Source: a virus (lineage: Duplodnaviria > Caudoviricetes). Taken from it: a stretch of DNA of 64,000 nt. The translations under genes were made by a program, and so were the position numbers. The DNA is taken from positions 1-64,000 of the IMG/VR virus record IMGVR_UViG_3300049142_000128; one strand, given 5' to 3'. Shown piece after piece: positions 3,902 to 31,801 of this stretch; within the stretch, counting starts at the first letter, position 1; each line of letters begins with the position of its first letter. The notes beneath the pieces were generated by a model. That model ran no database searches, was not told where the DNA came from, and saw only the letters and a program-made list of their open reading frames with translations.

Positions 3902-4389
3902 GCCATCCGCCCCGAGTAGTCGACGATGTGGCGGGCGAGCGTCCAGACGAGGTCCGGGTCGAGCCGGGCGTCGCCTGGCTTCCCGGCCGCGATGCGGCGG
4001 GCCAGCAGCCCGGCCGGGAGCGCGGCGGCAATCCGCTCGGCCGCTTCGTGGGTGAGCCAGCAGTCGCCGCGGTCCTCACCGGCGGCGTTGTCGTAGGAGA
4101 CGAACAGGCGGGCCGAGTGGAAGTCGTCGGAGTCGCCGTCGGAGTCGGTGAGGATCTCGGCGTCGACGGCGGCCGGGGGCACGCACAGCAGCTCGGCGAG
4201 CGTGACGATCGACCAGCGGGAGTCTCCGTCGGGCGGCGCGGGCAGCACCCCGCTCGGCTGCGGGTCGGGAGCGGGGTCGCCGGTCATGGGGTCGAGGCCG
4301 CGCAGGGCGCGGACGAGCATCACGTAGGAGTCGTCCGGCAGGTCGCGGTCGAGCGCCGCGGCCCGGATGACCTCCTCGGGGACCCTCAC
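3898..4389 (-). CDS. Hypothetical phage protein
   Basis: 163 aa ORF with coupled overlaps and coding-like composition. Confidence 0.55.
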   Translation of the reverse strand: MRVPEEVIRAAALDRDLPDDSYVMLVRALRGLDPMTGDPAPDPQPSGVLPAPPDGDSRWSIVTLAELLCVPPAAVDAEILTDSDGDSDDFHSARLFVSYDNAAGEDRGDCWLTHEAAERIAAALPAGLLARRIAAGKPGDARLDPDLVWTLARHIVDYSGRMA

Positions 4390-4586
4390 CGCGCCTCCCC
4401 GGAGGTCGCGGTGATCGACTTGATCGCGGCGCCGTGCTTGTTCGCGGCGAGCTTGGTGCGGACCCGGATGAGCTGGTCACCGGGCAGGTTGCGGTCGAGC
4501 ATGTCGCGCGTCAGGTCGTGCAGCTCGCGCAGCGTCATGCCCTCGGGGCTGGCCGCCTGGTGGGTGACGATGATCTGGGTGCTCAC
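4386..4586 (-). CDS. Hypothetical phage protein
   Basis: VSTQIIVTHQAASPEGMTLRELHDL...; coupled overlaps. Confidence 0.5.
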   Translation of the reverse strand: MSTQIIVTHQAASPEGMTLRELHDLTRDMLDRNLPGDQLIRVRTKLAANKHGAAIKSITATSGEAR

Positions 4587-4975
4587 GAGGGCGCTCCTCC
4601 GTGTCGGGGGCAGTGGGTGTGGCCGGGGGCCGGGGGTTCGGAGCACTGCTGGCGGCACCCGCCAGCGGTGGAGACGAAGGCGCAGCGGGCGCGCTCCGTG
4701 GGGCGCAGGAGGGCGGCGACCGTGCGCTCGTCCGCGGTGATGGCGCGAGCGGCAGGCAGGGAAGGCGCGAGGAAGAAGTCGCCGCCCGGGTTCTCGGGGG
4801 TGATCGTCGTGCGGTCGGTGACGCGCCACGGCGTGCCAGGACCTTCGAGGCGCTCGAAGTCCCACCGGTCGTCGGCCGACCGGGCGTTCCACACCTCGTC
4901 CTGCTGGGAGACCAGGTGGCGGCGGCGGACGGTGGCCGTGTGGTTGAGCGCGATGCGCTGCTGGGCGCCCATCAC
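4583..4975 (-). CDS. Hypothetical protein with C-terminal Cys/His cluster
   Basis: C...C...C...HCPRH at the C-terminus; coupled overlaps. Confidence 0.55.
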   Translation of the reverse strand: MMGAQQRIALNHTATVRRRHLVSQQDEVWNARSADDRWDFERLEGPGTPWRVTDRTTITPENPGGDFFLAPSLPAARAITADERTVAALLRPTERARCAFVSTAGGCRQQCSEPPAPGHTHCPRHGGAPS

Positions 4976-5352
4976 GCGGCCGTCGCCGCGTCAGCGTGAG
5001 CGCGCACGGGGATCGGGACCTCGATCCGCAGCGCGGTCGGCACCGGGTACGCGAGCAGCTGGTTGATCTCGGCTCCTGCGCAGCACCGGGCGACCGGCAC
5101 GCGGTAGATCCAGGCGCTCCCGGCGCGCTGGTAGACGACCTCCGCTTCGGCGTCGTTCGGGGCGTCCTGCGCCTCGGGACACCCGGCGCAGGCGTCGAGT
5201 TCCGCCGGTTCGACGAACACGATCTCCACGCCGTCGCGGTGCAGCGCGCTGTGGATGTCGAGCGCTGCGGACCAGTCAACGAGCAAGCTGTCCACCGTCT
5301 TGCCAGTCACTAGACAGGCTGGTGACGCGGGCGCCTCGTACACTGACGACAT
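4972..5352 (-). CDS. Hypothetical Cys-rich phage protein
   Basis: CAGC...RCC; start uncertain. Confidence 0.45.
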   Translation of the reverse strand: MSSVYEAPASPACLVTGKTVDSLLVDWSAALDIHSALHRDGVEIVFVEPAELDACAGCPEAQDAPNDAEAEVVYQRAGSAWIYRVPVARCCAGAEINQLLAYPVPTALRIEVPIPVRAHADAATAA

Positions 5353-5455
5353 CGGCCGTCCTTCCCAGGTGTGGCGGTCGTGGGGCTTGGTCGGGCCCCG
5401 GGCCCTGTCGAGTTGGCGCTCGGCAGGGCCCCGACCTTTCTTGCCCAACCCTACC

Positions 5456-5491
5456 GCTAGTTGCCTCTAGTTTCCACTCTGAGTTGCCTGT
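5456..5491 (+). promoter_or_regulatory. 10-bp-period direct repeat (TAGTTKCCTS-like), candidate operator
   Basis: TAGTTGCCTC TAGTTTCCAC TCTGAGTTGCCTG in an intergenic gap; related copies at 11391-11420, 11511-11529 and 12401-12418. Confidence 0.5.
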
Positions 5492-5581
5492 TGGGGATTT
5501 CTATCACCCGGTCCCCGAAACGCCGACTGCCGCACCCGCGAGTCGCGGATGCGGCAGTCGAAGGGCCGGCGAGGTGGCAGC

Positions 5582-6124
5582 TCAGGCTGGCGCCTCCCCG
5601 AGCACCGCGCGCCCGATGTCCTCGACTACGTCCGCCCACTTGGCCCGCGGATCCATCACCTCGGCGATCTCGCGGAAGCTCACCGCGGTGAAGACGAGCC
5701 CGCCCTCCTCGGCCGCCTTCGCCGCGGCCTCGAGCCGGGCCGGCCAGTCCACCTGGGCGGGGCCGGCGAGCACCTCGCGAGCCCGGCTCAGCACCGCAGC
5801 CGCGTCCAGGCGCACACGCGGCGCCGGGCGCAGCCCCAGCAGCCGGCCGATCTCCTCGACCGCCGCCCGGTCCTCGGCAACCTCGGCGGGCTCCTCGGTG
5901 AAGTCCGTTCCGCCGTGGTCGCGGAGCAGCCGCAGCGCGGCCCGGCCGGCGTTGTGGCGCCGCAGCTGCCGGAGCACCGCCGCGGCGAGCCCGATCTGCT
6001 CGCAGTTCGGGCTTGCGCCGTTGAGCAGGTTCACCAGGCGGGACACGTCGTGTGTGCCGGTCGCAACCAGGACCACGACCGGGTCGCCGTGCTCGTCGTC
6101 GTAGGCGCGGGTCTCGTAGCTCAT
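5582..6124 (-). CDS. Hypothetical phage protein
   Basis: 180 aa coding-like ORF coupled to the upstream gene. Confidence 0.6.
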   Translation of the reverse strand: MSYETRAYDDEHGDPVVVLVATGTHDVSRLVNLLNGASPNCEQIGLAAAVLRQLRRHNAGRAALRLLRDHGGTDFTEEPAEVAEDRAAVEEIGRLLGLRPAPRVRLDAAAVLSRAREVLAGPAQVDWPARLEAAAKAAEEGGLVFTAVSFREIAEVMDPRAKWADVVEDIGRAVLGEAPA

Positions 6125-6564
6125 CGGACAGCTTCCTTGGGTCCGGACGGTCCGTTCAGGATCCAGAGCGCGGCGTTCTCGCGCGGGTCGTCCGTCAGCG
6201 GCGGCTCGACCATCTCGCGGGCTCGCTGCTCGATCGGCTCCAGCTCGGCCACTCGGGCAGCAAAGGCATCAGCGGCTTGCCGGACGAACTCGGCGGCGGC
6301 CACGGGGTCGTCGCCTTCGGCGCGCAGCGCGCGAAGCACGTCCTCCTGCAACTTCTCAAGCTTCGTCGCGAGCTGGCGCGTCGTCTCACGATGCTCAGCC
6401 AGCTCAGCGGCGGCGTCGTACACCCACATCGCCCCCGCAGTGTCGCCGTGAGCGGACAGAGCATGCGCAGGCAGGTGCTCGAGATCGACCGGCTTGCGCC
6501 GGCGCATGGCGGCGGCCGGCATCGGCGGGTTTCGGCGCTCGAACTCCCCGGCGGTGGTGATCAC
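6121..6564 (-). CDS. Hypothetical coiled-coil phage protein
   Basis: GTG start at 6564 overlapping the upstream stop. Confidence 0.5.
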   Translation of the reverse strand: MITTAGEFERRNPPMPAAAMRRRKPVDLEHLPAHALSAHGDTAGAMWVYDAAAELAEHRETTRQLATKLEKLQEDVLRALRAEGDDPVAAAEFVRQAADAFAARVAELEPIEQRAREMVEPPLTDDPRENAALWILNGPSGPKEAVR

Positions 6565-6887
6565 GCGGCGCCCGCCATCTCCGCAGCAAGGGCGGCGCCG
6601 ATCGGGGACGCGAACGGGTCGCCGTCGGCCGGCGTCCACTCGATCCCGGCGAACTCGACCGGGGCTGCGAGGTCGAACCCGCGGGCGCCAGCGGGCGGCT
6701 CGATGGGCGCCACCGTGCTGGACGGCGCGACCTCCCGCTCCGTGTGCTCGTCAGTGCTCTGCGACAGCGACTGCTGCTCAGTGCTCGGCTGCTCGTCCGG
6801 GCGCACGTCGACGTCCTGCACCGCGGGCTCGTCGTGCACGGCGGGCTTGCGGGTCGTCCTGGCGGTGCGGGTGCGGGTGGTGCTCAT
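6561..6887 (-). CDS. Hypothetical acidic low-complexity protein
   Basis: MSTTRTRTARTTRKPAVHDEP...; RBS-like GGAAGG upstream. Confidence 0.45.
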   Translation of the reverse strand: MSTTRTRTARTTRKPAVHDEPAVQDVDVRPDEQPSTEQQSLSQSTDEHTEREVAPSSTVAPIEPPAGARGFDLAAPVEFAGIEWTPADGDPFASPIGAALAAEMAGAA

Positions 6888-6925
6888 GTCGGTCGTTGCC
6901 TTCCTGGGTCGGTGGTGCGGTCGAG

Positions 6926-9865
6926 TCATGACGCCGCCTGCTCGGCGGCGAGGATCTGGTCGAGCGTCGGGAGCGGAGTGCGCTGCGCGCGGGCCGGCGG
7001 GCGGCGGGTCCGGCCGAGGCGGCGATCGAGCTCGGCGACCGCGTCGGCGTTCTTCTTCGAGATGCGGTGCCGGTCCAGCTGGAGCGCGCGGCCGTCGTGG
7101 CCGATCTCGCGGGAGATCCACGCCTTCGGCCAGCCGCGCATGACCATCCAGTCGATGAGCTTCCACGTCGGGCCGGCCGGGACGAGCCCTCCGTGAGGGC
7201 CGGCGCCGGTGTGCTCCTGCGCTGCTTCGACGGTGAGAGCGAGGATCCGCCGCTCGCGCTCCGGGTCGATGCGGGAGACATGCCCGTACGCGATGTTGAT
7301 GATCGACTTCGGGTTGACGCCCGCCGCGCGAGCGAGCGGCTTCTGCCCTGCGCCACGGGCGATCAGCTTCTGCAGGTGCTCGCGCGCGGGCCCGGCATCG
7401 ACCAGGTCGGTAGCGATCTCGCCGCTCTGCCGGCGGCGCTCGTAGTCCGCGTTCGCGTCGCAGCACGAGTCGCACCGACAGCCGCGGGCGTAGGCCCACC
7501 GGTGCCCGTGCTCGACGTCGTCCCGGACGGCACGGTCCGCCAGGTCGGGCCGAACGGTGACCTCCCACTCCCAGCCCGGCACCTGCTCGAGCGCGGCGAC
7601 CCGGTCCGGCGCCAGCTCGCCGCGGCGGTAGGACTGGCGCTGGACGGTGCACCAGCGCGACAGGTTCAGCTCGTGGTCCGGCAGCTGCTCGACATGCTCG
7701 TACGGGACCCGCGCCGTATGGGCTCGGGTGACGTACTGGCGCAGCGCGAGGTAGCCGAGCCGCCAGGCGGTCTCCGCCTTCTCCCAGCGCAGCGGCTGCC
7801 AGTCGTGGCGGCCGACCAGCTGCAGCTCCAGCTCGAGGGCGGGGTGGAGTCGGCCGGTGTAACGGCGGCGCCGCACGGCGGTGAGCCACGCGCCGAGCGG
7901 GAGGCCGTCGTCGTGGTGGTAGTCGTGCGGCGGGTTGAGGTCGTGCTTCCACGCGCCGTACTCAGCGAGCGCGTCGACCATGCGCGCGTCGTCGTCCGGG
8001 ACGAGCCCCCACCGCCAGCAGGGAAGCTGCTCAGCCGCGCGCTCGAGGTGGCCGGGGAGCTGGCCCCGACGCCGGCGGGCCGCGGTGTCGACGGCGAACT
8101 CGGCGAGGCTGCGGTACGCGCGGGCGCCGGGCTCGGCGCTCCCGGTCCAGCCCGGGGTCTCTCGCAGCCACTCCCACCGTTCGAACTCCGACACGCGCGC
8201 CGCGCTGTGCCGGCGCTTCCACGCCGCGGCCGCCCGCCACCACGCCACCTCACGGGCGTTCCACGCCCAGCCGGGCAGCTTCTCCAGCGCTTCGACGCGG
8301 GCCGGTTCCAGCGTTCCCTGCTTGTAGAGCGTGCGCTGCCGGACGACCCAGGCGCCGAGCGCGACTCCTTCTCGACGGACCTGCTGGCTTGGGCGCGCCA
8401 CCCCGTGCTCGCGCGCGTGCGCCACGAGCAGGTCGTAGCAGTGCCACCACGATGCGCCGGTGCGGTCGAGCGCACGCAGCATCCAGCGGTCGATGTCGAG
8501 CCCGTCGGGCAGCTCGACGTGGAGCTGCGGCCCGTACCGCTGGTCACCCCGTCCGGGGCGGTAGCCGCCGATGCCGCCCGGTGTGGTGCGGGCGCGCAGT
8601 CGCGCGGCGAACCGCGGGTCCATCGACGCGAGCGCGCGCAGGGTGATCCAGACGTGGCGCCAGGCGGTGCTCGACAGCTCGGTGTCCTCGTCCAGGCCGC
8701 TGCCGGTGGTGACGGCGAGGACGACGCGGCCGCGTTCCTTCCCGGGAGCCAGGCGCATCGCCCGGCCGACGGCCTGCACGATGTCGACGGGTGAGGTGCG
8801 CGGTTCGGCGAACACCACGGTGTCCACCGCGGGGACGTCGACGCCCTCGGTGAGGATCCGCGCTGACGCCAACACAGCCGCGTTTCCTGGGGGTGGGTCA
8901 GCGAGCCGCGTGAGGGCGGCGGCGCGCCGGTGCGCGCCGTGCCGGGCTTCGAGGTGCTCGGCCTGTATCCGGACGCCGTCGGCAAGTTGGAGCCTGTCGA
9001 GGTGCCTTGCGAGCTCGCGGGCGTGGTTCACGCGGGAGTGGAAGGTCAGCAGGCGTCGGCCGCCGTCGCGGATGGCCGCGAGCACGGCGTGCATTGCGCC
9101 CGGGGCGTCGGCCGGCCCGGCGCCGGGCCGGACGGCGAGGACCTCGACGTCGTAGTCGACGAGCCGGCCCGCCGCGACGGCGTCGGCGAACGTCGCCCGG
9201 TACACGGTTGGCCCGAAGAGGGCCTCGTCGTCCAGGGACAGCGGCGCGGTGACATCGTCGAGGTCCGCGTCGGCCGTCCAGGCCGCTGCCTCGACCGGGG
9301 TAGCGGTGAGGAAAACGCGGCGCCGGGCCGGGAGGGCGTCATCGTCGAGGACGGCGCGGAACTCGCGACGCGGCTGGCCTGCGAGCCGATGCGCCTCGTC
9401 GCACACGATGAGGTCCGCGACGACGCCGGCGCGCTGCAGCGCTGCCGCGACGCGGGGCGCGGAGTGGTAGGTGGAGACGATCACGCGGGCGGGTCCGCCG
9501 CCGGCGAGGAACGCGTGGATCGCGCGCTCCGACGTGGAGGCGGTCACCGAGGCACGAGCCCAGGCAGGCAGCTCGAGGTCGTCGAGTGCGACGGCTCGAC
9601 CCGACCCCGGATCCGAGCACACGATCATCGACTGGTGATGCCAGGAGGTGTCCGAGCGCCACGCCAGCAGGGTCTGTGGGACCAGGGCGAGGCTCGGCAC
9701 GAACACGACGGCGAGGCGGGCACCGAGCTGCTGGGCGAACCAGCGCCCGAGGAGCGTCTTCCCGGAGCCGCAGGGCATCACGACAACTCCGCGGCCGCGC
9801 TTGCCGAGCCGCTCGTGCAGGCGGTGCAGCGCCTGGCGCTGAAGGGCGTGCGGTTTGCCCGTCAT
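6926..9865 (-). CDS. SF2 DEAH helicase with helicase-associated (HA) repeats and C-terminal Cys/HTH region
   Basis: Walker A MPCGSGKT, CDEAH, TATP, LTEGVDVP, QAVGRAMR; repeated W...Y..L / LGAWVVRQR...G.L...R...LE..PGW.W units; C-terminal GCRCDSC and HTH-like segments. Confidence 0.85.
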   Translation of the reverse strand: MTGKPHALQRQALHRLHERLGKRGRGVVVMPCGSGKTLLGRWFAQQLGARLAVVFVPSLALVPQTLLAWRSDTSWHHQSMIVCSDPGSGRAVALDDLELPAWARASVTASTSERAIHAFLAGGGPARVIVSTYHSAPRVAAALQRAGVVADLIVCDEAHRLAGQPRREFRAVLDDDALPARRRVFLTATPVEAAAWTADADLDDVTAPLSLDDEALFGPTVYRATFADAVAAGRLVDYDVEVLAVRPGAGPADAPGAMHAVLAAIRDGGRRLLTFHSRVNHARELARHLDRLQLADGVRIQAEHLEARHGAHRRAAALTRLADPPPGNAAVLASARILTEGVDVPAVDTVVFAEPRTSPVDIVQAVGRAMRLAPGKERGRVVLAVTTGSGLDEDTELSSTAWRHVWITLRALASMDPRFAARLRARTTPGGIGGYRPGRGDQRYGPQLHVELPDGLDIDRWMLRALDRTGASWWHCYDLLVAHAREHGVARPSQQVRREGVALGAWVVRQRTLYKQGTLEPARVEALEKLPGWAWNAREVAWWRAAAAWKRRHSAARVSEFERWEWLRETPGWTGSAEPGARAYRSLAEFAVDTAARRRRGQLPGHLERAAEQLPCWRWGLVPDDDARMVDALAEYGAWKHDLNPPHDYHHDDGLPLGAWLTAVRRRRYTGRLHPALELELQLVGRHDWQPLRWEKAETAWRLGYLALRQYVTRAHTARVPYEHVEQLPDHELNLSRWCTVQRQSYRRGELAPDRVAALEQVPGWEWEVTVRPDLADRAVRDDVEHGHRWAYARGCRCDSCCDANADYERRRQSGEIATDLVDAGPAREHLQKLIARGAGQKPLARAAGVNPKSIINIAYGHVSRIDPERERRILALTVEAAQEHTGAGPHGGLVPAGPTWKLIDWMVMRGWPKAWISREIGHDGRALQLDRHRISKKNADAVAELDRRLGRTRRPPARAQRTPLPTLDQILAAEQAAS

Positions 9866-12926: not shown

Positions 12927-14219
12927 ATGGCCTGGGCCGAGAAGATCCCCGGCAGCGGGAAGTACCGCGGCCGGTACCGCGACGCCACAGGACGCGCCCA
13001 GACCCTCGACGAGGGGCCGTTCACACAGCCAGCCGAAGCCCGTCGCCGCGCCTCAGTCGCCGAGGACAACGCCAGGCGACGTCCGGGGCGCCTCATGCCA
13101 CGCGGCGGCCGCATCACCTGGGCCGACTGGGCGGACATCTGGTGGCCTCTGCGCGCTGTCGAGCCGGGCACGCTCCAGCGGGACATGTCCCGGCGCAAGA
13201 CGCACCTCGAGCCGAAGTGGGGCACCACGCGCCTCGACGCGATCCGCCGCGACGCAGTCCAGGAGTGGGTCAACGACCTCTACACGAGCGGCATGGCCGC
13301 GGCGACGGTCGAACGCTGCTACCGGCTCTTCTCGGCGTCGATGAAGGCTGCGGTCGTGGCTGAGCGGCTCGACGCCACCCCTTGCGTGAAGATCGACCTG
13401 CCCAGGAAACCGCCGGCCGACGAGCGCTACCTGACCCACGAGGAGGTCGAGGCGATCACGCACTTCCTCGACCCGCAGGCCGCGCTGCTCGTGTGGTTCC
13501 TCGTTGGCACCGGCGTGCGGTGGGGCGAGGCCGTCGGCGTCCACCTGCACCGCGTGCACCTCAAGCACGCGCGCCTCGACATCCACGAGGTGTGGGACCA
13601 GCGGACCGGCGAGATCAAGCCCTACCCGAAGGGACGCCAGAAGCGCTCCGTGCCGCTCTCGGCGAGCCTGACCGCGAAGCTCAAGACGCACGTGAACGGC
13701 TTGCGCAGGTCCGGATCATGCGGGTCGCCGCACCGAAGAGGCTCGCACTGCCAGGCGCCGCTGCTCTTCCCGAACACCCGAGGGAAGGTCCTCGACTACA
13801 ACAACTTCCGCAGCAACGAGTGGGAGCGCGTCGTAGGGAAGTGGACCTGGGCAGCGCCGGACGGCACCACGTTCCGAACCGCCTCCGCCGCGCGGAAGAA
13901 GCTCGGCGAGGACGTCGAGCTGACGAGGCGATGGAAGGCCGGCCACGTGGATATCGGTCCGGTCACGATCCATGACCTACGTCACACATATGCGTCCTGG
14001 CTCATCCAAGACGGCGTGTCCCTCGAGGAACTTCGCGACCTCCTCGGCCACGAATCCGTGAAGACAACCGAGCGATACGCGCACCTCGCGCAGAGCCAGT
14101 GGAGCAGGGTGCGGCAGGCCCTCGACGCGAAACCTGCCCCAGATCTGCCCCAAGTCGATCAACTGGCGATCATGCGTGATCGAAAAGCACACCGTCTGCG
14201 CAGGTCAGCAGGGGTGTAA
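12927..14219 (+). CDS. int: Tyrosine integrase
   Basis: Catalytic R (TGVRWGE), HDLRH, LLGH, TERY; N-terminal arm-binding segment; att core immediately downstream. Confidence 0.95.
   Translation: MAWAEKIPGSGKYRGRYRDATGRAQTLDEGPFTQPAEARRRASVAEDNARRRPGRLMPRGGRITWADWADIWWPLRAVEPGTLQRDMSRRKTHLEPKWGTTRLDAIRRDAVQEWVNDLYTSGMAAATVERCYRLFSASMKAAVVAERLDATPCVKIDLPRKPPADERYLTHEEVEAITHFLDPQAALLVWFLVGTGVRWGEAVGVHLHRVHLKHARLDIHEVWDQRTGEIKPYPKGRQKRSVPLSASLTAKLKTHVNGLRRSGSCGSPHRRGSHCQAPLLFPNTRGKVLDYNNFRSNEWERVVGKWTWAAPDGTTFRTASAARKKLGEDVELTRRWKAGHVDIGPVTIHDLRHTYASWLIQDGVSLEELRDLLGHESVKTTERYAHLAQSQWSRVRQALDAKPAPDLPQVDQLAIMRDRKAHRLRRSAGV
14134..14152 (+). repeat. Integrase arm-type sites, left arm (CTGCCCCA x2)
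   Basis: CTGCCCCA at 14134-14141 and 14145-14152, 11-bp period. Confidence 0.7.
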
Positions 14220-25928: not shown

Positions 25929-26468
25929 TCAGGAGAGAGCGGCCGGTAGGAGCAGCGCAGCCGCGAGCACGAGCCCGCGGAAGATCCACTGCTCCGCCGG
26001 CCCGGCCGTCCGAAACCGCAACCAGTACGGCCACACGACCCGTACTCGGAACGGCCAGAACAGGAAGTCGAGGGACGTCTTTGTCGGGACGTCCCCCAGT
26101 ACGCCAGCGAGGTAGCCGAGCGTCCCGAATGCCGCCGTACACACGGCAGCGAGCGGGACGAGCCAGTACGCGGACAGAACGCCGAGCAGTACGCCCCACA
26201 GCAGGGACGCCGCGATCGTGTGGGTGAGCCCGCGGTGCGCCATCCCCACCACGCGTACCGACAGCAGCCGTACCGCCCAACACACCCCCCAGGAGAACGG
26301 CGGCAGGCACTTCGCCGCCGTCGCGTTCGGGTGGTCGACGTCGGGCACGTAGGCCGACGCCGCTCCGACGACCGCGAGCACGGGAACCGCGGTCACCGGG
26401 AGATCGAGCACCGCGGCGGCGCCGAGCGCAGCGACCGCGCCCGTCGCGAAGTGGGTGCGGCCCATCAT
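25929..26468 (-). CDS. Membrane metal-dependent hydrolase (YdjM-like)
   Basis: MMGRTH, PDVDHP, HRGLTHT, LGDVPT motifs; hydrophobic segments. Confidence 0.8.
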   Translation of the reverse strand: MMGRTHFATGAVAALGAAAVLDLPVTAVPVLAVVGAASAYVPDVDHPNATAAKCLPPFSWGVCWAVRLLSVRVVGMAHRGLTHTIAASLLWGVLLGVLSAYWLVPLAAVCTAAFGTLGYLAGVLGDVPTKTSLDFLFWPFRVRVVWPYWLRFRTAGPAEQWIFRGLVLAAALLLPAALS

Positions 26469-26481
26469 CGGGCCTCACCCC

Positions 26482-26627
26482 GCAGGATCGGCAGGGTTCG
26501 CAGGGTTGACGAGGGGGTCACACACCCTGCAGCCGGCGGAACCGCTGGTAAGACCCCCCTTCTGGAATCCTGCCAGGGTCCACGGCAGGGTCCGAACAGG
26601 GTTCGAGCAGGGTCGCGGTGCAGGGTC
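26482..26627 (-). repeat. clt-like locus: 8-bp TraB-recognition-like direct repeats (consensus RACCCTGC on the minus strand)
   Basis: Plus-strand copies (G/C/A)CAGGGT(C/T) at 26573, 26585, 26596, 26607, 26620 (11-13 bp period) and at 26482 (GCAGGATC), 26491, 26500; one inverted copy at 26523. Confidence 0.8.
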
Positions 26628-27804
26628 ATCCGACGCCCACAGCCTCTCGCTCGGGCTCCTTCTCAGCCTCGTCGTCGAGGAGCGCGAGGAGCCGCTCGGC
26701 GACCGTCTGGCGGCAGCCGTAGCGCTTCCGCACCTGATACGCCGTCGGGGGCTCGTCGAGCTCGGCGGCCCACTTCCGGAAGTCGTTCTCGCGGTCTGTG
26801 TCGACCGGGACGAGGCGCCGCGGCGGCGTACCGCCGGGCCGGTCCGCGTTCGGCCGCTGCTCGGTACCCGACTCGGTACGGGCGTCGGTACGGAACGTCG
26901 GGGCGTGCTGCTCGACCGGTGCCTCGTCGGTACGGGGCATCGGTACGGGCGGCGTACCAGCGTGCCCGTTCAGCCAGAACAGCGTCAGCCCGCACGCGTC
27001 CAGCAGGGTGAGGAACCGGCCGAGCGTTCCGTCCCGCCGGGACGCCTGACGGGCAGTACGGCGTGCGAGCCGCTCGGCCTCCGATCCGGACCACGCCGTG
27101 CGCGGGTCGGTGATGCCGTGCGCGATCGAGTAGCGGCGGGCGAGCCAGGTGCGAACCGGGAACGCACGCCAGCGCGCGGACGAGAACAGCGCGCCGGTGT
27201 CATCGACGCGACCGTCCTGCTTGCGCTGCAGGTGGACCGCGCGGCGGGTGTGCATCCCCCACAGCCACGGCTGCAGCGCGGAGAACAGGGCGAACACGAC
27301 GGCGCTGTCGGTCGGTGCCCAGCCGTCGGCGAAATGGGCGTAGTTGATCCCGGCCACCGCCAGCGCGAGCCCGTACGCCGCGACCCGTCGCCGGGATGCG
27401 GTGGCCGTGTCGCCCGCGAGCAGCGCGCCGTGGGCGTACCAGGCGACGGTGTTCGCGATCGACTCGACGGTCGCGGCGAAGCCGACCGCCACGACCGCGC
27501 GCACGACCCACGGCCACGTCGGCTCGGTGAGGTGGGCGAAGGCGTAGCCGACCTGCCCGAACATCGCGAACACGGTCACCGCGGCGAGCGGCGCGACCGG
27601 GCGCAGAGCGGCCACGCGGGCCGAGCAGGCCCTCCACCGCGCCGATCGGGCCGTACGCCGCAGGGCCCGCTGTGCCGCCTTCTCCGCCCGGCGCCGTGCC
27701 CGCGCGGCCGCCTTCTCGGCGCGGCGCTGGCGACGCAGCTCGGCGAGGGTGCGCAGCCAGTCCAGCCGGCCGCCGCCGCGCTCGCGCTCGTCGACGTCGG
27801 TCAC
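26626..27804 (-). CDS. SpdB2-like (DUF2637-type) spread membrane protein
   Basis: N-terminal Arg/Ala coiled coil, about four TM helices, C-terminal HTH-like PTAYQVRKRYGCRQTVAERLL. Confidence 0.7.
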   Translation of the reverse strand: MTDVDERERGGGRLDWLRTLAELRRQRRAEKAAARARRRAEKAAQRALRRTARSARWRACSARVAALRPVAPLAAVTVFAMFGQVGYAFAHLTEPTWPWVVRAVVAVGFAATVESIANTVAWYAHGALLAGDTATASRRRVAAYGLALAVAGINYAHFADGWAPTDSAVVFALFSALQPWLWGMHTRRAVHLQRKQDGRVDDTGALFSSARWRAFPVRTWLARRYSIAHGITDPRTAWSGSEAERLARRTARQASRRDGTLGRFLTLLDACGLTLFWLNGHAGTPPVPMPRTDEAPVEQHAPTFRTDARTESGTEQRPNADRPGGTPPRRLVPVDTDRENDFRKWAAELDEPPTAYQVRKRYGCRQTVAERLLALLDDEAEKEPEREAVGVG

Positions 27805-30035
27805 TCCGCGTCCCTCCGGGCGAGCCGGGCCGCGATCTGCTTGAGCTTCGGCACGTCATAGCCCTGGAGGCGGCCTCGCTGCTCGGTGCGGATCTCCTCG
27901 TCGATCGAGGCCATCTCTCGGCCGAGCTTCCGGGCCGCCTCCTTGAGGTCCGCCTCGGGGGCGTCGGCGACGACGCGGTCGAGGAGGATCGCGAGCTGCC
28001 GCGTCGAGATGAAGTCGCGGGGCGCCTGCTCGTCCCGCAGCAGCGTGATCACGGACTGGAGGGGCTCCGGCAGCGTGATGGCGGGCTTCTTCGCGATCTC
28101 ACGCAGCTCGGCGGCCGCGGCCTCGGCGTCCGGGAACGCCACGGCGCCGGGCTGCTCGTCGGAGATCTTCGGCTGCGCCGGCTGCTCCGGCGTCTGCTGC
28201 TCGGCCGCGGGCGCGGCGCCGGTCTCCTGCTCGATCATCTGCCAGAGCTCCTGATCCATCTCGTCGCCGAGCTGGCCCACCGGCCACTCCAATCCGTCTC
28301 GTGCCGCCGCGGCGGCGAGTTCAGGCAGCCGGGAGGCGTCCCACCGGCCGGTCCACACCTCGCCGAGCTGGTCGGCGATGTCGGCCTCGAGTTCGGGCCG
28401 CCACTGCCCGTTCCGCTCCGCGATCGGGGCGACGAGGTCCTTCGCGAGGTTGTAGGCCTTCGCCGGCATGACCCGCGGCTCGTCGATCGACGGCTGCACG
28501 AGCATCGAGTTGTGCTTGAGTTGCGCCGTGTCGGCGTACTTGACCTTGAGCCCGGGCAGCACCGACTGCCCGTCCTGCGGGGCGAGGGTCTTGAGGCAGA
28601 TCCGGTACGGGGTGTTGCGGGCGATCTCGGCCCCGTAGTCGCCGAGCGCGTTGTAGAGGTCGGTCTGGTTGATCGCCCAGACCGACACCTGCGCGGACCG
28701 GTTCTCCCCGAGGATCATGTGCAGCAGCTGGGAGAAGCCGACGACCTGGCCGGTATGCAGCTCGACGGTCGCGCCGGCGCTGGCCAGCTTCCCGGCCTCC
28801 TCGACGAAGCACACGATCGCTGGCTCCTTCGGCGTCGGCGTGTGGACGTCTTCGTTCGAGAGCCTCGCGTTGCGCTCGCAGACGATCTGGTAGACCGCGG
28901 CGAGCATGAGCAGCGCCTGCCCCGGGTGCTGGCCAGCGACGAAGTCGAGCGCCGGCTTCGGGCACTTGCCCTCGAGCCACGGCTTGATCCATGGGTAGAC
29001 CAGCGGTACGAGCTTGTTCGAGGCGACCACTCCGACGAGGACGTCGCCGCACTCGCCGACCCGGCCGATGATCGAGTTGGTGAGCCGAGACTTCCCGGAG
29101 CCGGTCGCGCCGACGATCTTTCCGTTCGCGCCGCCCTGCTCCCCGCCGAACGTGACGGTGACATGCTGCCCGTCCTCGAACAGGGCGTAGTCGAGCGGGT
29201 CGCCGATCGTGCCGGGCGCCTGTTCGAACGGCTCGTAGTCGATGGACTCGCGGAGGATGTGCTTCGTGCACACGTGGATGAGGTGCACGTGCGCGGCCTC
29301 GGTGGGCTCGACACGGATCGTGCCGGCGCTGACCGTGACGCCCTCGCGGGCGAGGAGCGACGACGCCTTCGTCGTGAGGTCCGGGAGGGCACCCTCGAGG
29401 ATGGCGAACGTGACGGGCTTCGTCTCCTCGATCGGCTCGACGCCGAGCACGTACCCGGCCCGGGTCGGCTGGGTCTCGACGATGCGCAGGGGCAGGTTGG
29501 CGGCTTCGAGGATCTCCGTCCACGTCGCGGTCGCCCGCTCGATGAGTGCCTGCTCGCGCTCCTCGAGCACGCGGGCGGCCGCCTTCGGGGCGGAGGTGCG
29601 CAGCACCCAGTACCAGCCGCCGAACCAGATGAACCCGATGACCAGCATGCCGAGGGCGTGCAGGGGGGACGTCCAGCACGCGTAGACGAGCCAGGCGGAG
29701 GCGGCGCAGCTCGCGATGATGGCGAGGACGCTCATGGACGCGCGCAGCTCGTGCCCGTAGTCGTTCTCCGGGAAGGCGCGGCGGGCCCGGCCGACGCCGA
29801 TCGCGGCGGCGATCGGGGCGAGGAGGGCGAGCGCGATCGGGGGGATCCCGAAGGCCGGGTAGTCGGCCACGAGCGCGAGGCAGTAGCACCACAGCGCGGT
29901 CTCGAGGGGATGCGCCCAGCGCACGTCCGGCTCCCAGGTCGACAGGCGCCGCACCTTCGGCGCTTCCTCCAGCTGCCCCCGCGCGGCCTTGCGCTCCGCC
30001 GGGGAGGACGTCGTAGACGTGGTTGTGCTGCTCAC
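27801..30035 (-). CDS. traB: TraB-type FtsK/SpoIIIE conjugative DNA translocase
   Basis: N-terminal TM helices, Walker A GATGSGKS, Walker B VCFVEEAG, INQTD, C-terminal winged-helix-like domain; GTG start at 30035. Confidence 0.8.
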   Translation of the reverse strand: MSSTTTSTTSSPAERKAARGQLEEAPKVRRLSTWEPDVRWAHPLETALWCYCLALVADYPAFGIPPIALALLAPIAAAIGVGRARRAFPENDYGHELRASMSVLAIIASCAASAWLVYACWTSPLHALGMLVIGFIWFGGWYWVLRTSAPKAAARVLEEREQALIERATATWTEILEAANLPLRIVETQPTRAGYVLGVEPIEETKPVTFAILEGALPDLTTKASSLLAREGVTVSAGTIRVEPTEAAHVHLIHVCTKHILRESIDYEPFEQAPGTIGDPLDYALFEDGQHVTVTFGGEQGGANGKIVGATGSGKSRLTNSIIGRVGECGDVLVGVVASNKLVPLVYPWIKPWLEGKCPKPALDFVAGQHPGQALLMLAAVYQIVCERNARLSNEDVHTPTPKEPAIVCFVEEAGKLASAGATVELHTGQVVGFSQLLHMILGENRSAQVSVWAINQTDLYNALGDYGAEIARNTPYRICLKTLAPQDGQSVLPGLKVKYADTAQLKHNSMLVQPSIDEPRVMPAKAYNLAKDLVAPIAERNGQWRPELEADIADQLGEVWTGRWDASRLPELAAAAARDGLEWPVGQLGDEMDQELWQMIEQETGAAPAAEQQTPEQPAQPKISDEQPGAVAFPDAEAAAAELREIAKKPAITLPEPLQSVITLLRDEQAPRDFISTRQLAILLDRVVADAPEADLKEAARKLGREMASIDEEIRTEQRGRLQGYDVPKLKQIAARLARRDAE

Positions 30036-31801
30036 GGTCGCTCCCGGTTCGCGCTGAGGTCCCACTTCTCCTGGTGAGCCTTCGGGTTCCGGAGCTTCTC
30101 GAGGTCCTCGATGTGGGCGCGCTCGAATGTGGCGCGGGCGTCCTCGCACGGGCCCTTGTAGGCCTGGAACTGCGCTCCGAGCCGAGCGGCGAACTCCCCG
30201 GCCGCGGGGTAGAGGAAGAACTCCTCGGTGTTCCGGGCGCCCTGCGTGGTCAGCATGGCCGAGATCGCGTCGACCAGTCCCGGCATGCCCTCGTACCAGT
30301 CGATGACGCGCAGCGCGTTGTCCGGGGAGTAGGCCTGCGCGGCCTGCGCGCACGCCTCGATGACCGCGGCGAACGGGTTGTGTCCGGACACCGGGGCGGA
30401 GCCGAGCTGGGTGCCGCGGCTGGCGCGAAGGCCGGTCGCGTTGATCTTCGGGCGGCGGCGCATGGGCATCGTGTCTCCGAGGGGTCGTCTCGTTCCGGTG
30501 GTCGCCGGCTTCAGCGCGTTGTCGATCGCCTTCCGCGCGATCGCGGACGTGCCGCGCTGGCCGGTGTGCTGCTGCTTCGTCCTCGGCTTGCGGTGGCGAT
30601 GCGGGCGGGCGGTGTGCCGCCCGGCGAGGTAGCCGAGGATGCGGCGGATCCCGGCGAGGCGCCCGCCGCTCGACCGCTGCCCGGCCGGCAGGCTTCCGCG
30701 CCCTCGGCGCTGACCGCCGCTGCCGGGAAGGGTGCCGCGGCCCGACCGCTGCCCGCCGCTGCCAGGCAGAGTTCCGCGTCCAGTGCGGCCGACGAGCGAC
30801 CTCGGGCGGGTCCCGTTGGCTCGCCATGCCTTCGCGAGGCGCCGGGCACGGGCGAGGTTCCCCAGCCGTCCCGCCGCGCCAGCCAGACCCCCGGAGCCGC
30901 GCCACCCGCGACCCGACCTCGGACGGCTCGACGTCGGGGCGCCGCCGCGCGAGCGCCGTCCCGTGGGGCCCGGGGACGAGGAGCGGCGACGACCTGCGAC
31001 GGGGCGCCCCGAGCCGGTGCGTCCGGGGCGGCCGCCGGTGAGCAGCCGCCGCAGCGCCGCGCCAGGCCCGGAGCGCGACCCGCCGTTGCGGCTTCCGGCC
31101 CCGCCCCCGCGGCCTCCGCCGCTCGTGCGCCCGGCCTTCCCGACAGGGCGCCCCTTGCCCGCGGTGCTGCCGCCGCCGCGGCCCAAGCCGCGCAGCCCGC
31201 CCAGCAGGCCGCGGCCCTTCCCCAGGCCACCGCCTCGCGACAGGCCGCCGCGCCCGTTCGACCCGGCCCCGGCCGAGCGCCCTGCGCCGGCGGAGCGGCC
31301 CGCACCGGTGGATCGCCCCGCCCCGGTACCGGTACGCGGCGAGGCGCCCTTCCTCGAGGCGCCGCCGCGGAGCCCGAGTCCGCCCAACGCGCGGCCGAGC
31401 CCGAGCCCACCACCTCGGCGCCCTGAGCCGGGCGCGCCGCCGCGCGAGTTCGCGGTTCCGCGACGAGCGGCCGCACCCTGGCCGAGCCCGAGGCTCGGAA
31501 TCCGGGCCGAGAGCCCACCGCGCCCGGCCTGTCGGGCGGCGCGGTGAGCACGACGCAGCTCCCGCTCTGCGACGCGGAGCCGGTTCTTCGCCTCCTTCGC
31601 GGCCAGCTCGTGCGGAGAGCGGTTGCGGTCGCGCATCGCGGCGACGCCTGCGCCAGCCGCGGCCACACCCGCGGCAGCGAGGAGACCGACCGGGCCGAAC
31701 ACGGCACCGGTCGACGCAACGGCAGACGCGGCGGCCGGAGTGGCGAGCTCCCAGGCCTGCCGCGTCATCAGCGGGGGCGGCTTCTCGACGTCGCTCATCA
31801 C
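30032..31801 (-). CDS. TraA-like transfer protein with long Gly/Arg-rich linker
   Basis: N-terminal TM segment, G/R low-complexity middle, C-terminal FERAHIEDLEKLRNPKAHQEKWD; coupled to traB. Confidence 0.55.
   Translation of the reverse strand: MMSDVEKPPPLMTRQAWELATPAAASAVASTGAVFGPVGLLAAAGVAAAGAGVAAMRDRNRSPHELAAKEAKNRLRVAERELRRAHRAARQAGRGGLSARIPSLGLGQGAAARRGTANSRGGAPGSGRRGGGLGLGRALGGLGLRGGASRKGASPRTGTGAGRSTGAGRSAGAGRSAGAGSNGRGGLSRGGGLGKGRGLLGGLRGLGRGGGSTAGKGRPVGKAGRTSGGGRGGGAGSRNGGSRSGPGAALRRLLTGGRPGRTGSGRPVAGRRRSSSPGPTGRRSRGGAPTSSRPRSGRGWRGSGGLAGAAGRLGNLARARRLAKAWRANGTRPRSLVGRTGRGTLPGSGGQRSGRGTLPGSGGQRRGRGSLPAGQRSSGGRLAGIRRILGYLAGRHTARPHRHRKPRTKQQHTGQRGTSAIARKAIDNALKPATTGTRRPLGDTMPMRRRPKINATGLRASRGTQLGSAPVSGHNPFAAVIEACAQAAQAYSPDNALRVIDWYEGMPGLVDAISAMLTTQGARNTEEFFLYPAAGEFAARLGAQFQAYKGPCEDARATFERAHIEDLEKLRNPKAHQEKWDLSANRERP

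Follow-up and report, generated by a model that had tools for sequence, protein, structure and literature searches.

The window, by which we mean the whole stretch of DNA that was analyzed (64,000 nucleotides), is the first 64 kb of one 77,127-bp phage genome, with a G+C content of 72.7%. In addition to a tyrosine integrase, the phage genome codes for a tape measure protein, a major head protein and tail proteins, as well as for DpdA, a holin and a CHAP lysin. The phage is tailed and temperate, and its host is a putative high-GC actinomycete. The minus strand has a run of genes that overlap at their start and stop codons (Table 1), encoding in this order a G/R-rich membrane protein, a TraB/FtsK-like translocase, an Spd-like membrane protein and, after an array of short repeated words, a YdjM-family membrane protein, whose gene is syntenic in all relatives (numbered with L below). 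The first product of the run has an N-terminal membrane helix, a G/R-rich low-complexity stretch of ~350 residues and a conserved C-terminal domain, and its length as predicted by gene callers varies widely among the relatives (116-494 aa). DUF2637 is matched by the Spd-like orthologues in L007, L011, L012 and L013; the label "SpdB2-like" is therefore to be taken as putative, its basis being only this match in relatives, together with the membrane topology.

Other repeated words occur in the genes on both sides of the array. Within the spd-like gene, GTACCGA is found five times on the minus strand (26861-26946), in the part coding for a disordered linker (P-R-T-D / R-T-E), and the relatives have words of their own at the linker position (CGTCCCG in L004, GGACCGG in L008, CGTCCTG in L013). 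Since GTACCGA lies mostly in one frame and is lineage-specific, it is probably a peptide repeat of the linker. Inside ydjM (26024-26204) there is a local pile-up of CGTCCC (six copies), accompanied by CGTACTGG-like words in two frames and by a GGGACGTCCC palindrome that was flagged as terminator-like, and CTGTCC clusters are seen inside ydjM of L006 and L007. A minimum of the cumulative GC skew near 26-28 kb was rejected as a mark of an origin, because it coincides with convergent transcription.

Table 1. The array, its parts and the surrounding genes, with positions in the window
Feature	Position	Strand	Remarks
Tyrosine integrase	12927-14219		12 kb from the array
YdjM-family membrane hydrolase gene, 179 aa	25929-26468	-	PF04307, 2.5e-19; last gene of the coupled operon
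Mini-ORF, 54 codons	26465-26629	-	Spans the whole array; ATG overlaps spd stop (ATGA), TGA overlaps ydjM start
Right arm	26482-26507	-	AACCCTGC 26507-26500, AACCCTGC 26498-26491, GATCCTGC 26489-26482; 9-bp spacing
Inverted copy in the central spacer	26523-26530	+	CACCCTGC; position not conserved among relatives
G-rich box	26542-26559	-	GGGGGGTCTTACCAGCGG; family consensus GGGGGGTCYTRCCTGCG
Second inverted copy	26566-26573	+	AATCCTGC; pairs as a palindrome with the last left-arm word
Palindromic junction	26566-26580		AATCCTG-C-CAGGGTC; last left-arm word abuts the inverted copy
Left arm, five co-oriented 8-bp words	26573-26627	-	GACCCTGC 26627-26620, GACCCTGC 26614-26607, AACCCTGT 26603-26596, GACCCTGC 26592-26585, GACCCTGG 26580-26573; spacing 13, 11, 11, 12 bp
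Spd-like membrane protein gene, 392 aa	26626-27804	-	Start overlaps traB stop by 4 nt
C-terminal three-helix HTH of Spd-like protein	26674-26784	-	
TraB/FtsK-like translocase gene, 744 aa	27801-30035	-	
C-terminal winged helix of TraB-like protein	~27804-28073	-	From the model
Predicted recognition helix H3	27903-27947	-	LKEAARKLGREMASI
Walker A	29088-29111	-	GATGSGKS
G/R-rich membrane protein gene	30032-31801	-	Upstream of traB

Copies, chance and conservation of the array

An earlier reading of this DNA, made from its letters alone and referred to here as the original prediction, had described five minus-strand copies at an 11-13 bp period, three further copies at 9 bp and one inverted copy. 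Every one of these was recovered, the third right-arm word being a one-mismatch variant (GATCCTGC), while the second inverted copy and the G-rich box are additions to that description. Overall, eight co-oriented and two inverted copies are packed into 146 bp, a cluster as is expected of a clt, for which short direct repeats (7-9 bp), often along with inverted ones, would lie within about 50-180 bp. The left arm sets in at the end of the spd-like gene, with its first word overlapping the TGA stop, and the right arm, which starts 73 bp after the last left-arm copy, ends 13 nt short of the first ydjM ATG.

The repeats exist as described, and their clustering far exceeds what chance would produce. 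On the two strands of the phage genome together there are 33 copies of ACCCTG, 8 of which fall within the 146 bp, and the cluster scores 14.2 (-log10 of the Poisson tail), whereas none of 40 genomes simulated with a third-order Markov model exceeded 8.1. A count of the genome-wide density of the word, proposed along with the original prediction as a check, spoke against a background occurrence: the array is the top k-mer cluster of the 77-kb genome, in which the word is clustered nowhere else, and likewise the top cluster in every relative. Outside of the array, ACCCTGC was observed 12 times where 11.8 were expected, with a strand skew (10:2) that 10% of comparable 7-mers also reach. Such a concentration at the locus, as opposed to a scatter over the replicon, would be expected of a clt.

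Relatives were found only via a protein collection, in which the TraB-like protein has 36 homologues in metagenome assemblies, and there is no cultured member among them; 12 relative contigs were taken, that of P0035 being without DNA. No close relatives were found in INPHARED phages (DNA), IMG/VR, GTDB genomes or JGI metagenome contigs (pattern). The gene order traB, spd, array, ydjM is kept in nine relatives, whose TraB is 56-89% identical to that of the window, and so is the bipartite layout of the array. The left arm consists of 4-8 co-oriented words at 10-13 bp, the first of which always overlaps the spd stop, and is closed by the palindromic junction in all nine; the right arm consists of 2-5 words at 9 bp and stops roughly twelve bases short of the ydjM start. 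In five loci the two arms are 72-73 bp apart, counted from the final word of the left arm to the opening word of the right. The G-rich box (GGGGGGTCYTRCCTGCG) follows the junction in the family alignment.

The logo of the words reads G-A-C/T-C-C-T-G-C with uninformative flanks, and when the pair L006/L008 is compared, word columns are 84% identical vs 60% of the other columns (Fisher p = 2e-4). Seven loci carry ACCCTGC, L009 a degenerate NNCCTGC and L013 GACCGTG, and in L007 a different word, CCCGTGCC, sits in the same array architecture, with the G-rich box kept despite the change of word. The TRS word of pSVH1 is reportedly GACCCGGA; that it shares GACCC with the phage word may be a coincidence, because relatives use other words (CCCGTGCC, GACCGTG). 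In the distant L011 and L012, a palindromic GCAACGGTTGC array with a G-run box beside it follows the stop codon of ydjM (L011:6150-6500, L012:7880-8130), and their spd-ydjM pair and array lie on the strand opposite to traB. Physical linkage of the array is therefore tighter to spd-ydjM than to traB.

The TraB-like translocase and candidate readers of the word

The TraB-like protein matches the FtsK/SpoIIIE-like PHROG at 4e-21, and PF01580 is weakly matched by 20 of 24 members of the TraB-like family. Its AlphaFold model (pLDDT 81) has long N-terminal helices, a motor, a disordered linker and a C-terminal winged helix. The top PDB matches of the motor in Foldseek are the FtsK motor (E 1e-12; 6t8b/2iut). 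The C-terminal model is a winged-helix fold with generic matches (Rex with Z 7.0 and an rmsd of 3.0 over 70 residues; MarR family), for which Foldseek gave no significant match and sequence searches no match to solved structures; FtsK-gamma was not recovered among the matches of this domain, an absence from the lists that does not exclude FtsK-gamma. As modeled, the protein combines the features expected of a TraB, i.e., N-terminal membrane helices, an FtsK-type motor with a Walker A motif, and a C-terminal winged helix.

When the loci are compared, the array word varies along with the predicted recognition helix of this winged helix, whereas the HTH of the Spd-like protein does not follow it. 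Among the ACCCTGC loci, H3 is 60-93% identical (mean ~78%), the proteins as a whole being 50-69% identical apart from two close pairs. In the TraB tree, L007, which has the different word, groups as the sister of L006/L008 with a support of 98/95 and an overall identity of 69-70%; its H3, however, agrees with theirs at only 40% of positions, and the wing of L007 has a 4-residue insertion in addition. L013 (GACCGTG) and L009 (NNCCTGC) show smaller H3 changes, so that the covariation consists of one clean switch (L007) and two partial ones. ACCCTGC, CCCGTGCC and GACCGTG, with matching changes in one helix, would make a natural specificity series for DNA reading by TraB-type winged helices.

Another protein of the module could be what docks on the array, most plausibly the Spd-like/DUF2637 protein via its C-terminal HTH, in which case TraB would act without sequence-specific loading. 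The Spd-like protein does end in a clear three-helix HTH and has its stop codon inside the first word, and in L011/L012 it is with spd-ydjM, not traB, that the array stays. There are parallels elsewhere, as the palindromes to which SpdA2 binds lie within the gene for SpdA2 itself (PMC4170104) and SpdB2 has been reported to bind dsDNA (in a study cited in PMC4447253). However, the recognition helix of the Spd HTH differs strongly among loci with the same word (CRQSVAERLL, CGYDVAVRLL, CGHDKALALL), and L007 falls with L008/L010 in this helix although its word is another one, so that the helix does not covary with the word. As the word tracks H3 of TraB while the Spd helix varies freely, TraB is favored as the reader, and we regard docking of the Spd-like protein as unlikely.

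The mini-ORF and further readings of the array

The original prediction had the array filling a gap between the spd-like stop and the hydrolase start. This location was correct, but the gap is not empty, as a 54-codon ORF that is coupled to both neighbors runs through it. Such a coupled mini-ORF is present in 9 of 9 loci, in 8 different lengths (147-246 nt; 48-81 codons in the relatives) and always in frame, starting with ATG or GTG (ATGA/GTGA); it was called as a gene in three of the relatives and is without a Pfam match. Left-arm words are spread over all three reading frames (20:18:15, giving D-P-A, G-P-C and T-L tripeptides), which argues for a constraint on the DNA and not on the peptide, and right-arm words are all in one frame (T-L-x). 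We read the mini-ORF as a translated linker that couples ydjM to spd and has a putative DNA-level site written into it, not as a protein of its own. It may serve as an example of bases that belong at once to a translated sequence and to a putative DNA-binding array, in ORFs that gene callers either miss or label as hypothetical protein. In L013, the mini-ORF is fused in frame to an HNH/NUMOD4 endonuclease ORF (L013:8017-8748), which starts at the array's own ATG, so that the left arm codes for its N-terminus, and which has replaced most of the right arm; it looks like a homing endonuclease inserted into the array.

This arrangement raises the question of whether the array is mainly a device for the expression of ydjM, i.e., an operator array and/or a translated coupling spacer, its words being regulator sites or products of slippage. 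The right arm that ends just before the ydjM ATG would fit, as would the coupling of the mini-ORF at both ends in every locus. On the other hand, the array stands after the ydjM stop in L011/L012, and in L013 the HNH gene separates it from ydjM. Neither a sigma-70-like promoter nor a terminator was found in a scan of the array and the spd-ydjM gap, and no regulator gene is consistently linked. Furthermore, 8-13 copies of a single word, spread over three frames, are more than coupling by itself would require, and the words are better conserved than the spacers. Such a role as the main function is improbable in our judgment.

That the array is a small protein-coding gene, with the repeats as peptide repeats, we consider very improbable, even with an ORF that is open in all relatives and right-arm words that share a frame. 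The left-arm words do not keep to one frame, the peptide is altered wholesale where the DNA word changes (L007), the L006/L008 peptides are about half identical vs 86% for the TraB proteins, and a family match is lacking. A single-sequence z-score of -2.3 and an RNAalifold energy of -12 kcal/mol with an unfavorable covariation term gave no support to a structured RNA. Equally remote is a part in some other DNA transaction, as arm-type sites of an attP, replication iterons, a ParR-type centromere or a terminase pac site: two direct-repeat arms around a conserved core resemble attP arms, R1 parC and P1 pac in outline, but the tyrosine integrase is 12 kb off, the integrases of the relatives lie on either side at varying distances, L013 keeps the array with a serine recombinase, and no par, rep or terminase gene is adjacent, the array being linked only to traB-spd-ydjM. 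An attP and a ParR/parC-type centromere were rejected on these grounds, the latter also with no promoter predicted.

A candidate clt and its comparison with known transfer systems

We find the array best explained as a clt-like, cis-acting docking site for the phage's own TraB/FtsK-like translocase, and give this reading a probability of about 0.6, because the layout is kept, the word covaries with H3 of TraB, and comparable arrays are found on plasmids. Two actinomycete plasmids carry distant TraB-like homologues (23-28% identity). In Streptomyces mobaraensis pDSM40587, copies of GCACCTGTTGC run from the stop codon of the TraB-like gene and are followed by a C-run spacer and inverted copies, and in Actinoalloteichus pGBA129-24a, CGGTAG recurs at 11-12 bp from the TraB-like stop, followed by inverted copies, a spacer and two more copies. 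These putative plasmid arrays show the phage layout to be one that belongs with TraB-type modules. The gene sets near them are found at 4350-6644 on the first plasmid (DUF2637, TraB-like) and at 1471-2238 and 4515-6941 on the second (YdjM, with TraB-like near). The clt-like interpretation in the original prediction is accordingly retained as the best supported one, with an architecture shared by nine relatives and no clusters elsewhere in the genome to its credit; the word that it named is a candidate recognition sequence, and the transfer module may, as it proposed, still be functional.

We infer TraB binding, motor loading and any DNA transfer as the following steps. C-terminal winged-helix domains of TraB would read the bipartite 8-bp words (consensus GA[C/T]CCTGC) on double-stranded phage DNA, and several subunits would dock on the co-oriented words of the left arm, where words spaced at ~11 bp would come to lie on roughly one side of the helix. 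A hexameric motor would then form around the DNA at the left arm, and through it the phage genome, circular and double-stranded, would be pumped into a neighboring hypha or across a septum, much as has been described for plasmids of Streptomyces and for AICEs. The envelope would hold the Spd-like and YdjM proteins as accessory components. Simple docking of TraB does not account for the G-box and the fixed 72-bp distance between the arms. It also counts against TraB docking that the array begins at the spd-like stop codon, 1.2 kb past the traB stop and after spd, albeit within the same coupled operon, where the plasmid arrays start directly at the traB-like stop, that the array of L011/L012 is linked more tightly to spd-ydjM than to traB, and that the C-terminal domain resembles winged helices only in a generic way.

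As the array is most likely the docking site of this pump, a passage from cell to cell as naked DNA may be open to the phage genome as well. In its full form, this proposal would be that a temperate phage family with virions uses the TraB/clt module as a second, virion-free route, by which the excised genome is pumped as dsDNA from cell to cell or from one hyphal compartment to another, and that TraB bound at the site and ribosomes moving into ydjM could affect one another, since the docking site lies inside a translated linker ORF. We put it forward tentatively, as a possibility that we would sooner bet against than for. With a working clt, the phage family would spread both as particles and by double-stranded DNA transfer of the Streptomyces type.

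The clt loci described in the literature measure 50-175 bp and are made up of 7-9-bp direct repeats accompanied by inverted ones, next to the 3' end of tra genes or overlapping it; in pSVH1 it is TraB that reads the 8-bp repeats, via alpha-3 of a winged helix, and TraA of pWTY27 footprints its repeats (PMC3583192, PMC4447253). The phage array resembles a clt in being a 150-180-bp array of 7-9-bp co-oriented words with some inverted copies, in starting on a stop codon at the 3' end of a putative transfer operon, with the word confined to the locus, and in adjoining a gene for a membrane-anchored FtsK-type translocase with a C-terminal winged helix. It differs from a clt in several respects. Its replicon is a tailed phage that forms virions and has an integrase; the array comes after the spd-like gene and not after traB itself, and lies inside a translated linker ORF; its layout is fixed and bipartite (an ~11-bp arm, a palindrome, the G-box, a 72-bp gap and a 9-bp arm); and the TraB-like protein is only ~23-28% identical to its plasmid homologues.

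Similarity to KOPS/SRS lies in a co-oriented 8-bp word that is read, putatively in the phage, by the C-terminal winged helix of an FtsK-type motor. KOPS, however, are distributed over the chromosome with strand polarity, and an identification of the array with polarity words of this type was rejected, the phage word being unenriched outside of the array and its skew ordinary. The spread modules of plasmids offer a parallel to the overlap with coding sequence in sps/SpdA2 of pIJ101, where short DNA words inside the gene also shape the peptide, but sps is a 12-bp palindrome in 2-3 repeats and affects plasmid stability, not transfer (PMC4170104).

Phage-borne ftsK-like genes have been noted before and explained as host manipulation or segregation functions (PMC10117723, PMC4569894). 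Dense repeats were also seen at two such genes in other phage records. In Saccharomonospora phage PIS 136, ~1.4 kb of very dense GGTTCC/GGAACC (TGGTTCCAC), partly non-coding (L001, 3150-4560), lies upstream of an FtsK-like gene that is 31% identical to the TraB-like gene of the window; in a record named Microcystis phage Mwe-JY05 (L002, 7536-7726), at least ten CCGGACC words lie in the linker-coding part of an FtsK-like gene, at a G+C-rich, actinophage-like locus that is at odds with a cyanobacterial host. In the literature that we covered, in which the Streptomyces plasmid-phage pZL12 is represented by papers citing it, we found no description of a clt in a phage. As portrayed in those papers, pZL12 combines genes for phage particles with a Streptomyces-type tra function in one element (Zhong et al. 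2010, in PMC4487206, PMC3583192), and it is described as a ParAB-bearing plasmid prophage (PMC4487206), in contrast to the integrase-bearing phage here. If a working clt is indeed what the array provides, the line between phages and conjugative elements would be blurred beyond the single plasmid-phage precedent of pZL12.
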